In this document: piece by piece, positions 55,513 through 62,082 of the stretch
Layout of the letters: each line of letters begins with the position of its first letter
Numbering within the stretch: position 1 is the stretch's first letter
DNA from: Trichodelitschia bisporula
Lineage: Eukaryota
NCBI GenBank assembly: GCA_010356995.1
Contig: ML996707.1
Coordinates: 1-64,000 of the forward strand
Length of the DNA: 64,000 bases
Direction: 5' to 3'
Notes under the pieces: model-generated
Told to the model about the DNA's origin: nothing
The model's input: only the letters and a program-made list of their open reading frames with translations
The model's database searches: none
Position numbers and translations under genes: made by a program

Positions 55513-57006
55513 TTGAAAGAGCGAATGAAAGCGATTACGGGGTGACCGACACCAGCGGAGACCCGACCGATATAAGGTCTGCCGACCCGCCGAAGCAAAT
55601 ATTAGCCAACAACGGCAAGCAGCCCTCCCTCGGCACCGGAGCGGCGTCCAATGAGCACCCACTGGGCAGCCAGTGTGCGGTCAAGGTGCGGCCCAAATAA
55701 TGTCAATACGCAAGCCGGTTAATTAACCCCGACAGAAATCGCCTCCAGGCGCGCGTGCAGCCCTCCCCCGCGAGGCGAGAGCGAACAATTTCCACCAAGC
55801 GTCAGGTGCTGTGCTCGAGGGAAGACGATACGAGGCCGTGCTCGTTTCAATTTACGCTTCGCACAGAGGCATCTGCCGTCTTGGTGTCTTGATGTCGCCA
55901 AGGGCGGGGTGTCCATATTGCGAGCTCAGATCCCCAAATGGATGGAAAGCATGGAGACGTGGGGAAAGGCACGGGTGTATGGGGTGCTTCCGGGGATAAC
56001 ATAGCCTTCCGGCCACCGAGCTTGAGACCGGTTTAGCAGCATATCGGGCGGTATATAGCATTGGCGAGCGGCACATCGATCGTGTTTCGGACAAGCATCT
56101 GAAGAAGAGGGCATCGAAGGTTGTCGCCTAAGATATCGGGAAGGGCGAGGGAAAGCCTAGAAGCTTCGGGATCAGCCACTTGTCCTAGAGTAGCTTCTCC
56201 TCATCTGCCATCTGCTATGTCCATCGGCCATTTTGCTGTCATTTGTGCGTCTAGCTGCTGATCGGATCTCCCGCATCTCCGGCGGCCTTCGGAAGCCAGC
56301 CCCCAAGACGATCCCGTTTCAGCTACGCACGATATGACGACCGGCTATTCTTTCCGACAGCCAATGTCGGGACACATGACGGGACATGATAAAGTGGGCT
56401 GTGAGGGACAAATGGCATGGTCAGCAGGGGCGGGATCCGTCAGGTAGATTGCAAAAGCTTATGTCTGTGAAGGGCTGGGCGACCATATGTATACTGTGAT
56501 GCGAGATGAACCGTCCACGCGAGTTGTACTATAGAAGAAGAGTCGACGAGATGATGTTCGATGTTGGCCGATGCGGGGAAAGTGGACGAGTTGGAGCAGG
56601 CAGGGAAGGGTCGACGTCGCGCTGATGTTACGACATCTGCACGTGATGTGATTTTTCCAACCACTCAACCTCATGCATCCCAAGCAGAACTTGGAGATTG
56701 TCGCCGATAATCCACTTGCAAGCGAAGTGAGAGCTGCCTCACATGAGTATCGAGATCTTCAGCAAGCGATAGCCGTGCGGAAAACAACGGCTCGACTCCG
56801 CCCGGCTCGGCTGCGTGGCCTCGCAGGTTATGCGGCCCCAGGGGAAGGACACAACGTCAGAGCGACTCACAGTAGGAGCATACAGTGCACAGTACGAGTA
56901 CCGCCGCTAACCATTGAATTGGCACTAACAACTCTACCCTAGCTCATAACCTCACTGAGAGAAGAATGCTGCCCACAGGCGAGCGACGAATCAAGTCCCA
57001 AGACCA

Positions 57007-57741
57007 TCAAGGGGGGACGCCCTCGTCAAGGTCGGATTCCGTGATGCAGTCGGATCCGGTGTCGTCGGTCTCGACCTCACCCTGCGCATTGAGTCGGACC
57101 CAGCCTTCAGCGTTCGGTGTCGTGTGATGAGGGTCGAGAATCCAGGTCGCAGAACTCTCGCCAATGCCGTCGCTCATAGTGTCATCGCCCTCTGGAAACA
57201 GATGCTTCACGCATGCGGAGCCGCTCATCGTCGGAAGTGAGGCGAGATTCTCCTCCTGCTCGGCCAACTGGTTCTCCACGGCAACGGCATACTCGTACTC
57301 TGGCATGAGCACCTCACTGAAGTCATGCAGCTTGAACTCCTCCGCAAGACGCATGGCAGCTTCAAGGCGCTCAACCCAAGTATCGGTGGCGCAGCATTCA
57401 GGGTTTATCTCACGCCAGCAGTCCCAAGCTTCGGAATCCTCACGAATTTGCTTGTGGCGGAGAAATTGCAGCCATAAGAAGATTCCGGCGAGCGATGAGG
57501 ACTGGGTCGTAAGGCCTTTTTCAGGATGCGGACTGGCCACGAGATCGTCGAGAAGGTGGGCTGGAATATCCTGGATACCGAACGGGATCCTAACGTCTGT
57601 GGACGCGTCCTTCACCATGACGAGACCTCGCTTCATCAAGGTGCGGAAGCCATCTTGCTTCCTCAGCAGGGAACGTAGACGCACGAGGGACATACTCGGT
57701 GGCTGGATATGAGTGTTTTGTCCCTCCGTGCCACGCATCAT
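57007..57741 (-). CDS. Hypothetical protein, possibly a divergent BTB/POZ-like fold with acidic tail
   Basis: 244-aa intronless ORF with globular composition; IFLWLQFL...LEAAMRLAEEFKLHDF resembles the helical end of fungal BTB domains (weak). Confidence 0.5.
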   Translation of the reverse strand: MMRGTEGQNTHIQPPSMSLVRLRSLLRKQDGFRTLMKRGLVMVKDASTDVRIPFGIQDIPAHLLDDLVASPHPEKGLTTQSSSLAGIFLWLQFLRHKQIREDSEAWDCWREINPECCATDTWVERLEAAMRLAEEFKLHDFSEVLMPEYEYAVAVENQLAEQEENLASLPTMSGSACVKHLFPEGDDTMSDGIGESSATWILDPHHTTPNAEGWVRLNAQGEVETDDTGSDCITESDLDEGVPP

Positions 57742-58054: not shown

Positions 58055-61000
58055 CTACGCCTCCACCGCGGGCCCGATCTCCTGCGCCCGCTCGATGAAA
58101 TCTGCGCTTGTCTTCAGATTCTGCGCACCGCTCAACGCCTTGGTCATCGTGGTCTCGCTGCGCTCGCGCACCAACCGCCGCAACGCGTTGATCAAGAACC
58201 CGGAGAAGATCTCCAGCGACCACGAGTCCGGCAGCAGACTCAGGACCTGCGCTGTCAGTGGGGCACAAGAGTAGACGACAGACTTACGTATGCAACGTCA
58301 AACCACCCCCCAAACCGCTCGAGCAGCTCACCCGTGCGCTCCATGCGGTCCCCCACATCCTCAATCCGCAGGAACTCGTGCAGCAGGAAGCCAAACAGTT
58401 TCGCCTGTTCGTCACGGGACGCTTGCTCTCGCGGCACCGCGTCCGACGCCGTCCCAAAAATGCTCGACCCGCCACGCAGGCAGTAACTGATCGCCATGTC
58501 AAAATCGCCCAGTCCGTGCGTCAACAGTCGGATCGCCTCCTCGTGCCGCCCCTGGCGACCGTTGAGGATGATCATCTCCGGCACGAGCTCCTTCTCGAAC
58601 GGCTGCAGCCGCGTGAGGATCGCAAGGACGTCGTACGACGACGCCGCGCCCTGGTTCCCACCCAGCAGCTGAAGCAGGCGCAAACGACTGTGCCACCATT
58701 CCGACGGCACGGCATTGTCAATTATGAACTGGCGATACGTCGGCTTTGGCGGCCGCAAGGCACGGTAAGTCTCGTAGGTTGCGTCCAACATGGCACGTGA
58801 CTCGACGGAGCTGGTAAGCTCGTTCAGGACGATGTCGAGGTAGTACGAAATGAGCTCATTGATGTGTTGCGGTTGCTACCATCGTTAGCGCTAGGTAGAC
58901 TGAGCAGGCCCGGACCGAAGATTGAGCTACTACCCCCACGGAGACGGAGGTCCGGTATCTTGGAGCGATTTTCGAGAACGAGGGTATAGCTCAGGACACG
59001 TACGGCATGCACAACGACATTGTCGAAACACGGCTGGCAATTAAGGACTTCAGAGCTGCTCTTCCTTGTTTTCGGCGACCAAAAGAACGTAGAACTGACC
59101 AGTACGGTAAATTTTCTCGATAACCAGCTTTGTCGGGAAAATCTTTAATGTACTGGACGGTTCTACGCTCTTATGGTCGCCGAAGACAAGGAAAAGCCGC
59201 TCGCTGTAATCCTCGATGGCGAGCTTCATCTGGGAATATCTTTGTGCACGCCGTACGTGCCCTGAATCGTCCCTTCGTTCTCGAAGATTGGCCCAAGTTA
59301 TCGGATTTCCGTCAACCAGGGGGGGGGGGAGCTCAATCTTCAGCATGAGCGGCTTGAGCAAACACACCTTTTTGCCAAATACCAAATGCTCTAGATAGTC
59401 CTTGACCGCGCCTGGTGCCCGTGCGCGCAGCGTATGCAGTGCGTCCGCTGGCGACCACGTTACGCGCGAGCCGTCGTCGGCGAAGAGCTGCACACCCAGC
59501 TTCGGATTGCGGTTCGCCAGCCATGTGCCGTACTCTTCGACCAGCCGGCGGTCGCGTAGCTTCCCGAGGTAGCGCCGCATCTCGTTCTCGCCATCGAGAA
59601 ACTCGCCGCCGAGGTCCTCCTCGCCGTCGATGATGCGCCGCCACGTCGCCAGCACCTTGCCCGACATCTTCCTGCTCTGGTAGAGCCGACTAAGTATGAA
59701 TAAACGCTTGTGCTGCTCGAGCAGCGCAATCGCCCGCTCAAAACAATCCACCCCACCGTCGACCACGCCGTTCAGCTCTGCACGGATCGACCCCGCGGTC
59801 GCCGGCCCGCGCGTCTTACTATCAAGAAGCAGCAGCACGCGCAGCAGCGCTGCGTCAACCGTGGGGAAGACGTGCGCGCCGTCGGTCACGCTTGGGTTGC
59901 CCTTTTTGCGACGCCAGAACAGCAGGTAGCGCTTTATGAGGTGCAAGATGTTGTCGCCGAACGGTCCGGATGGATCGTCCGGGAGTGCACCGATGTCGTT
60001 CTGCTGCAGGAAGCGCTCAATCAGCCCCTTCAGGCCCCCCTGCAGCCATATGCCGTCCGGCCCCTGCAGGATCTCTTCGCGGATCTTCGGCAGGAAGATG
60101 AGCGCCACGCGTGGGTCAAGCTCGCTTTCGACGAGAATGTCTTCGGTTGAGCGGATCTCGCGCTCGAAAATAATGATGCCAGAAGCGGTGCGTAAAATGA
60201 GTTCGACAAAGAGCAGCGTTGCGGCCTTTTGGCGGATGTAGCTGAGCGTGAAGAACTCCAGCTCAGTCGTCGACTTCACGCCGCGCAGGTCGTTCACGAC
60301 GGTTTCGATCAGCGGCCGCTGCGGGTCTACAGCTGCCTCGCCCTCGCCTAACGTGAGACGCGCGTCTAGCTTGAGCACCATCGGATTGCGCACAATCCAG
60401 CGTACGGTATCGCCCGTCCACAGCAGCAGATTTGTCTTGACCTTGCACAGCCGACGGATGTACTCCAGCTCGTCGCTCTCGCGCTTCGCCGCCGATGGGC
60501 TCTCGATAGGCTTGTCGAAGAGGCGCATGCTCGTAAGGGCAAGCTTCTGGCTCATCTCGGGCATTTCGAGCTCCCTCTTCATCGTGACTGACCGGATGCC
60601 CAGCGACTGGGACTCTGCCGCCGTGCCTACCTCGAGCCATTCCTTCTTAACACTCTCCTCTCCCTGGTCAACGTCCCACCGCTGGATTTCAATCGCCTTC
60701 GCATCGTCGCGGCGCACTACGGCCAGCACGTACCCGGGCTCTTGTTCTTCGCCCTCAATCTGCGATGCCGCTAAATCAATGCCAGAACCGTCGACGACCA
60801 CAGCCTCCGGGTAGCTCGAGAACTCGATCGTGCCGCGTGGAACCTCACCGTCCATGTTGACGAACATGCCGACGCCCGGGTCGGCTGGCGCAGTGCCCGT
60901 AACGAGCAGGAACTCGGACGAGTTCGGCGACACAATCAGCGGCTTCAACGGAACGTAGTTCTTTGGGAGAGGAACCGGAGTCACGCTTAGAGAGAGATTC

Positions 61001-62082
61001 GACGCCGACGCCGGCGCAGGCTGGGCCTCGCTCTCCCCGGGCGGCGGTGGCAGTGGCTTGGACAACAGCCCCAGTCGACCACCCTCGGACCCACGCCGCT
61101 CCTGCGAAGGGTACCGCGGAGTTCCTTGCTTGAGACTTGCCGGCACATCGAAACCGTAACGCGTACTCGGTTTGTCGTCGTCGCTGCGAAATACCCCTAG
61201 AGACGAGCTGCGCCCGTGACCACGCTCTACCCCGAGCCGCGAGTTCATCGCCGGCGACCCGCTCCGTGACATGTCCGACCACTCTTCGGCCAGCATGCCA
61301 GTCCCCGCATTCTCTGCAGGCTGATCGTCCATCGACGATATCGAAAACAGCGGGATCTTCTGCCGATGTACGACGTCCACAAGCGCGTACGACCGCGCGT
61401 CGGCCACACAAGCCACATTGCCGCGCCGCACCGTTGCCAGACAGCCGCCAAACTCAATGTCCCGAATCTTGACTGGTTCGTCCCCCACCTTGACGAGCCG
61501 GATCTTGTTCCGCAAACACATCATGATCATGACGCCGTCCGGATTCTCCTGCTCTCCGGCGTCTAGATCGATTCCGCCGACCCACCCACATGTTAGCGGC
61601 CGCAACCGTGTGTATGGCGCGCTGAGCTCGGTGAAGGCGGGGCTGAGCTCCGGCAGCGAGTAGAAGGTCAAGGTGTTGCTGCTAAGTATGCACGCTTTGC
61701 CGACGGCCGGCAGCAGCAAGATCTGCTGTATACCAACGTCGCCGGCCTGGTTCGTAGGAGGGTGCGAGCGCGACGCGAGGATGTATGTCGGCTGGTCAGA
61801 GGGGTTGTTCGGGTCTGGTGGAAAGTATACATGGTGGAGGATCTCGCCGGCGGACGTGCCGATGTAGAGGTTATTCTCTGTGGACGTCAGCAGGGTCCCG
61901 ATGCAAAACGTAGAATGAGCGTAGAATCCTGAAGAGCTGAACTGACCCCAGACTTCTACACAAGTGATGCGGATGCCCTCCTCGCCCTCTGCGCTCAATG
62001 CAACGTCTTTGATGAGGTCGCGGAGGATGAACGAGCCGGTCGCGAGGGACGTGGTGGTGGGTGCGTCAGGCGGCCCAGACAT
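58055..62082 (-). CDS. Vps3/Vam6/TGFBRAP1-family CORVET/HOPS subunit (CNH domain plus clathrin-like repeat)
   Basis: ITCVEVW...NLYIGTSAGEI, LTFYSLPEL, GMFVNMDGE.RGTI, GRHEEAIRLLTHGLGDF, VLSLLPDSWSL. Includes a 492-nt intron at 58876-59367; stop at 58055-58057. Confidence 0.9.
58907..59354. mobile_element. Intronic fold-back / MITE-like element (~448 bp, ~200-bp inverted arms)
   Basis: Arms pair from gaagattgagct (58917) / agctcaatcttc (59341) inward to a ~6-nt loop at 59124-59129; flanked by direct TGAGCA at 58901-58906 and 59355-59360. Confidence 0.75.

Follow-up and report, generated by a model that had tools for sequence, protein, structure and literature searches.

The host gene and its 492-nt intron

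The window analysed here is a stretch of 64,000 nt of Trichodelitschia bisporula (contig ML996707.1, positions 1 to 64,000 of the forward strand). Its minus strand carries a gene of the Vps3/TGFBRAP1 type with three introns, the second of which contains a long fold-back. The features of the gene are as follows.

58055-62082, minus strand: host gene, Vps3/TGFBRAP1-like, 1141 amino acids (from the spliced frame, contig joints, and homologue names)
62082-61947, 61877-59368, 58875-58288, and 58246-58055, minus strand: exons of the host gene
61878-61946 (69 nt) and 58247-58287 (41 nt), minus strand: the other introns of the host gene
58876-59367, minus strand: intron 2, 492 nt, phase 0, GT-AG (contig joint 58875-59368 in runs X3 and X4; position shared with 19 of 80 orthologous loci)
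59362-59367, minus strand: 5' splice site GTGTGT
58884-58889, minus strand: branch-point motif GCTAAC with the putative branch A at 58885 (branch use judged from the fungal consensus)
58876-58878, minus strand: 3' TAG of intron 2

A 492-nt intron in a Vps3/TGFBRAP1-like gene had been proposed in the original prediction and was borne out by assembled contigs and by the reading frame. Contigs of X3 and X4 join position 58875 to 59368 with CT..AC ends, and along the gene they skip 41, 492, and 69 nt, all with CT..AC ends, where the DNA runs X1 and X2 are continuous. X3 and X4 are two runs of one sample whose RNA status was guessed by the tool, no run being recorded as RNA, and they are treated as RNA because three GT-AG introns are skipped. 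Exon depth was 154.7 and 51.2, and the intron interior was covered by a single 159-nt contig (depth, 2.3) in X3 and by none in X4; this low cover is not taken as a measure of splicing efficiency, which contigs cannot give. No contig retaining the intron was seen among those of X3 and X4. The spliced frame of 1141 amino acids has the same length as P0001, a database protein with the source label Trichodelitschia bisporula; identity to P0001 was 100% across the region searched. Homologues carry the name TGF-beta receptor associated protein or vacuolar protein sorting-associated protein 3, and the host protein has a weak Pfam match to Vps39_1, under the cut-off. Reading through from the upstream exon, the frame continues for 105 codons into the insert, in agreement with the roughly 100 codons claimed. 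The claim that most introns here measure 40 to 48 nt was not confirmed when looked at in the host gene alone, whose remaining introns measure 41 and 69 nt.

At 56943-57691 of the window (minus strand), the X3 and X4 contigs extend without interruption from the host gene across the ORF region downstream of it. The host gene and this region likely give neighbouring or overlapping transcripts; the contig does not establish one single transcript.

Orthologous loci were taken from the best-scoring 80 of 119 confirmed metagenome stretches, a selection that may favour intronless genes. An intron lies at the same codon boundary in 19 of the 80 loci, 60 have none, and 1 is undecided, a distribution that points to repeated loss of intron 2 across the orthologous loci. 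The 19 introns comprise 15 distinct sequences of 45 to 66 nt (median, 48 nt) with fold energies of 0 to -11.9 kcal/mol, none of them strong. In many homologues derived from unspliced gene calls, the sequence likewise enters a GT after the same lysine. In this comparison, in which the nearest homologue besides P0001 is 74% identical, intron 2 is old in position, often lost, and short wherever it is present in orthologs. Because the orthologous introns are only 45 to 66 nt long, the fold-back was added in the T. bisporula lineage. The intron is lacking even in some of the closest orthologous loci (L031, L032, L049, L072, and L103).

Structure of the fold-back and removal of the intron

The fold-back and its surroundings within intron 2 consist of the following features.

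58917-59123, no strand assigned: fold-back arm 1 (fold and self-alignment)
59124-59129, no strand assigned: central loop, 6 nt (fold)
59130-59341, no strand assigned: fold-back arm 2, ~74% self-identity (fold and self-alignment)
58901-58906, plus strand: TGAGCA, left copy of a possible target-site duplication (within chance)
59355-59360, plus strand: TGAGCA, right copy

The fold energy of the fold-back is -269.2 kcal/mol, compared with -153.4 ± 6.7 kcal/mol for shuffled sequences (z, -17.2; 0 of 100 shuffles as good), so that the fold-back is real, as had been claimed. The transcribed strand has a fold energy of -256.4 kcal/mol and a predicted duplex of 187 bp, with a longest uninterrupted helix of 25 bp. 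Among the 20 inverted pairs listed for the window, the fold-back is the sole long one. The four paired blocks named in the original prediction, the 6-nt loop, the direct TGAGCA repeat, and the 38-nt empty site were all located in the sequence. The wording "near-perfect" did not survive, since the arms contain indels and match at about 74%, and no unbroken helix of the transcribed strand exceeds 25 bp. The self-identity of the arms is 73.7%; an alternative alignment with several indels pairs 156 of 215 columns, its centre being off by 2 to 3 nt, which affects the last columns only.

The insert measures from 425 bp (firm arms) to 454 bp (bounded by the 6-mer). The TGAGCA copies sit 10 and 13 nt beyond the firm arms, and the outer 10 to 13 nt between the arms and TGAGCA pair poorly. 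Among control flank pairs, 9.9% of the shuffled ones and 8.2% of the random ones had a 6-mer of equal quality. The bracketing direct repeat claimed earlier is thus present, and as a target-site duplication it lies within chance (8 to 10%). Removal of the 6-mer-bounded piece leaves an intron of 38 nt and removal of the firm arms only leaves 67 nt, two empty sites that are equally plausible beside the 41- and 69-nt introns of the host gene.

The donor, branch motif, and acceptor all lie outside the insert, with a single branch-plus-acceptor set at the 3' end. GCTAAC is the sole RCTRAY match of a motif scan within the 492-nt intron, and two internal donor-like words lie within the stem. Intron 2, whose ends are observed, is removed in one step at its ancestral sites. 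A stwintron or nested splicing was rejected, as no signals for it and no internal intron interrupting a splice element were found. A sister stwintron or introner-like intron was also rejected: such introns occur as many similar introns at new positions, and intron 2 is a single copy at a position shared with distant fungi. The symmetrical sister stwintrons and introns of Hypoxylaceae resemble intron 2 in being fungal U2 introns with ~73% identical inverted repeats (PMC8469720, available part). As described there, each is a complete mobile intron at a new position, with repeats of 45 to 55 nt and many sisters, whereas here the insert lies in an old intron and has arms of ~205 nt, without sisters or nested splice sites.

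On the transcribed strand, the pairs spanning intron nt 24 to 454 are predicted with a probability of 0.96 to 1.0, and the branch A at nt 483 is mostly unpaired. With this firm stem, the donor-to-branch A distance of 482 nt would shrink to a predicted linker of ~50 nt, inside the window of 42 to 85 nt that the accessible text of PMC12350175 defines for zipper stems in yeast. A weak outermost helix (nt 18 to 460) would cut the predicted linker to ~40 nt, which is no longer than the zipper minimum. For the donor, a pairing of ~70% with the next exon is predicted. The suggestion that the fold brings the donor and branch point together agrees with this predicted geometry, which fits a zipper stem with a ~50-nt linker. 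According to the same part of that source, the zipper stems found in long introns of Saccharomyces (RPS17B type) start 10 nt or more past the donor, end 20 nt or more ahead of the branch A, and leave a linker of ~50 nt, as is predicted here, and they are likewise lineage-specific and poorly conserved in sequence. Unlike those stems, nearly the whole of intron 2 is predicted to be one ~190-bp rod from an inverted duplication.

Other fold-backs and a palindromic repeat family

The window and 60 further stretches of 10 kb (664 kb in all) were screened for self-inverted matches that scored 50 bits or more within 1 kb. This gave ten fold-backs, of which 9 came from the 600 kb sampled without regard to the target. 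These 9 measure 103 to 222 nt, have self-identities of 71 to 91%, and fall into 5 clusters, and the third 200-kb sample held none. The locally shuffled first 464 kb gave 0 fold-backs. In 431 kb of 52 nonredundant loci from other fungi, a control with half as much noncoding DNA, 0 were found at 45 to 50 bits versus 9 in 600 kb of own DNA, and at 40 bits 3 were found versus 11 in 664 kb of own DNA, including the target. At the cluster level, the chance of such an excess is ~0.1 by hand arithmetic, and an enrichment over other fungi is suggestive and not established. By a crude screen, 7 of the 9 have no bracketing donor plus branch/acceptor and 2 are intron-like. Fold-backs are thus a recurring feature of this genome and are not specific to introns. 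For five of the 9, on L124 and L150, no further copy was found in the genome. Besides the target, the window's own contig carries the following.

L124:6819-6965 and L124:8883-9054 (G000:C21:170819-173054): fold-backs
L132:437-770: fold-back
L121:8295-8397: fold-back

Motifs for a minus-strand donor and branch/acceptor flank the L121 fold-back, which is 91% self-identical and may lie within a leader intron. Three unrelated intergenic fold-backs of 183, 215, and 143 nt, with self-identities of 71 to 82%, lie within 850 bp at L150:5673-6523 (G000:C6:305673-306523).

A pair on L149 belongs to a palindromic family of 190 to 220 nt that is unrelated to the fold-back of intron 2. The terminal 20-mer of this family has 86 matches with at most 2 mismatches, versus 0 for the control, on 21 contigs, and the family forms one cluster, spanning at most 13.2 kb, on each of the 21. 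Among C1 to C25, it is lacking from C14, C15, C17, and C21, the last being the contig of the window. Its arms are 68 to 80% alike, and its copies differ from one another to the same degree. Four clusters were examined in context.

C5:505972-508673: palindromic family cluster (L149)
C19:327827-333717: palindromic family cluster (L195)
C3:978583-984925: palindromic family cluster (L198)
C18:292487-299221: palindromic family cluster (L201)

They lie in islands of 9 to 10 kb, mostly of 41 to 49% GC, in which no more than one ORF of 170 amino acids is present; across 11 loci of the family that were checked, the GC content was 0.38 to 0.51, compared with a background median of 0.57. The family is a candidate centromere repeat, and one gene-poor island per contig would fit short regional centromeres. 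The centromeres of Zymoseptoria tritici are described as ~10.3 kb long and without a shared motif in the available part of PMC4589918. If the islands are indeed centromeric, the dothideomycete studied here would differ from Z. tritici, as described there, in having a shared centromere motif. The palindromic family is probably more interesting than the fold-back of intron 2.

Origin of the fold-back

In a DNA search of the 25.8-Mb own genome, no second copy of the fold-back was found, the matches being itself and its self-inverted form only; this search scores the best candidates only, and very old sisters can escape it. The same search with an unrelated palindrome as a positive control gave 86 rows of 68 to 87% identity besides itself. 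Two translated frames of the fold-back matched only themselves and their mirror in the own genome, and blastn and tblastx against the sampled own-genome stretches gave no match. Among pattern searches, an outer-arm 12-mer had 7 other exact matches in the own genome, none of which extends; one arm pattern had 14 matches versus 8 for the control, of which the 12 nonself ones do not extend; another matched itself only; and a further one had 41 matches versus 37 for the control. The power of a 3-mismatch pattern per sister of the same age is 0.5 to 0.9 at 15 to 20% divergence from the ancestor and 0.2 to 0.3 at 27%. Against the 80 orthologous loci, blastn of the fold-back gave only chance words of 15 to 25 nt, and one exact 20-mer searched against viral contigs gave 0 matches.

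These searches bear on the mobile-element reading, in which the fold-back is a palindromic nonautonomous DNA transposon (a MITE or a fold-back element) that duplicated a 6-bp target site on insertion and is the last copy still recognisable, the others having been lost or having diverged too far. We regard this as possible, if rather unlikely. The insert is under about 500 bp (425 to 454 bp), has no coding match, and has long inverted arms; TGAGCA flanks it on both sides, where a target-site duplication would be; the 38-nt empty site is plausible; and the genome holds at least one multicopy palindromic family. Mutator-like fungal MITEs with inverted repeats of ~115 bp are listed in a table of PMC3227409, and the 13 families of Epichloe festucae, as covered by the accessible part of that source, share with the fold-back a size of <500 bp, a noncoding nature, inverted repeats, and a possible intronic location. 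However, high copy number belongs to the definition of MITEs in that text, and no second copy, let alone a set of homogeneous size, was recovered by DNA, translated, or pattern searches of the own genome. Unlike the E. festucae families, the fold-back is single copy, has no distinct internal region, and has no parent element that could be found, and its 6-bp duplication is doubtful, lying outside the arms at a chance level of 8 to 10% and not being among the duplications listed there for Epichloe (TA, AT, TWY, 8 bp, and 9 bp). In addition, removal of the firm arms alone gives an equally plausible empty site of 67 nt. Of the two observations that together would refute the mobile-element reading in the original prediction, one, the lack of other copies, was made in these searches of the own genome. 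The claim of a mobile insertion is supported as far as an insertion into an old short intron, specific to this lineage, is concerned; the MITE label, with no second copy and a duplication within chance, is not supported.

The differences between the arms comprise 29 transitions and 19 transversions over 204 aligned sites, and the G-U-compatible transitions are balanced (16 on the plus strand versus 13 on the minus, transcribed strand), as the original prediction had stated. Since there is no G-U strand preference, there is no sign of tolerance at the RNA level. The differences look like undirected change at the DNA level and fit the DNA-level decay claimed earlier. The mismatches between the arms do not by themselves imply that the palindrome was once perfect, because the arms of the multicopy family (68 to 80% alike) differ as much as its copies do. 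Repeat-induced point mutation (RIP) concentrates C-to-T changes at CpA. A RIP-mutated repeat was rejected, at most 8 of the 29 transitions lying in a CpA/TpG context; the dinucleotide indices of the fold-back (0.83 and 0.88, versus 0.61 and 1.16 for the window) are only mildly shifted. A coding ancestry, in which two pieces of a protein-coding gene or retroelement, by now diverged, were joined head to head, is suggested by arm mismatches of 22, 16, and 10 across the three codon phases and by protein-like translations. We consider it very improbable, as neither the synonymous excess nor the phase bias is significant in simulation (P = 0.14 and 0.12), the 4 matches in a protein library are summed weak repeats of repeat proteins (best single stretch, 10.3 bits), and there is no credible match in Pfam, the own genome, longer proteins, or the Atlas. 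Atlas scores were 0.75 and 0.89 with low recognition, and of 84 longer candidate proteins searched, none matched at E ≤ 1. At present sensitivity, the coding reading is largely refuted.

If selection maintained the hairpin for a role as RNA, it would be either a Dicer substrate (a long hairpin or milRNA locus) or a tuner of splicing or level of the host gene. A predicted duplex of ~190 bp, including a 25-bp helix, would be made with each transcript, and the genome has two Dicer-domain genes. Against such a role, the transcribed strand has no G-U preference, the hairpin is absent from all 19 orthologous introns examined, the DNA search of the own genome gives no other sequence as a small-RNA target, and no Rfam family was matched (one chance match, 15.5 versus 88.5 bits). 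The part of PMC9757828 available to us describes intronic hairpin small-RNA loci as very rare in fungi, and its criterion for a fungal hairpin small-RNA locus is that >80% of small RNAs come from the hairpin strand and depend on Dicer. Selection for an RNA function is therefore judged improbable. Some dicing of the fold-back RNA is possible, with products that would have no target outside the intron.

The fold-back is probably a one-off inverted duplication, added to an old short intron and spliced out as a tolerated passenger without a regulatory role. A fold-back-primed inverted duplication is the favoured origin in our analysis: a piece of filler DNA may have paired with itself at a short palindrome and so have primed its own duplication while a break was being repaired or the DNA replicated, and such events seem to recur in this genome. 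The source or template of the arm sequence was not found in the own-genome searches. The insert would be tolerated since the pre-mRNA could fold it into one rod, bringing the donor-to-branch A distance from 482 to ~50 nt in a zipper-like manner, and the folded insert would then be discarded with the lariat. In the inverted triplications of Aspergillus flavus, as described in the available part of bioRxiv 10.1101/2025.01.14.632981, a short palindrome is proposed to prime an inverted copy, and the fold-back here has a tight 6-nt centre loop. Those triplications are rare, unfixed, and triplicate local DNA, whereas the fold-back here is fixed and old. No literature on fold-backs, introns, or centromeres of the genus was found, as judged by titles and the starts of abstracts, with most subscription journals outside the search.

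A broader reading takes the target as the largest seen of a genome-wide class of unrelated, single-copy fold-backs of 100 to 450 bp, numbering hundreds by extrapolation, made de novo and kept at 70 to 90% self-complementarity, which introns absorb only by self-folding. We think this unlikely; if true, long introns here would arise through palindrome capture, with the hairpins serving as a standing nursery of new Dicer substrates. The target matters more as a pointer, in that the genome appears rich in unrelated fold-backs. Taken by itself, the fold-back is a natural example of a 50-nt intron growing tenfold and still being spliced, and intron 2 is a ready minigene for testing the rescue of long introns by folding in a short-intron fungus.
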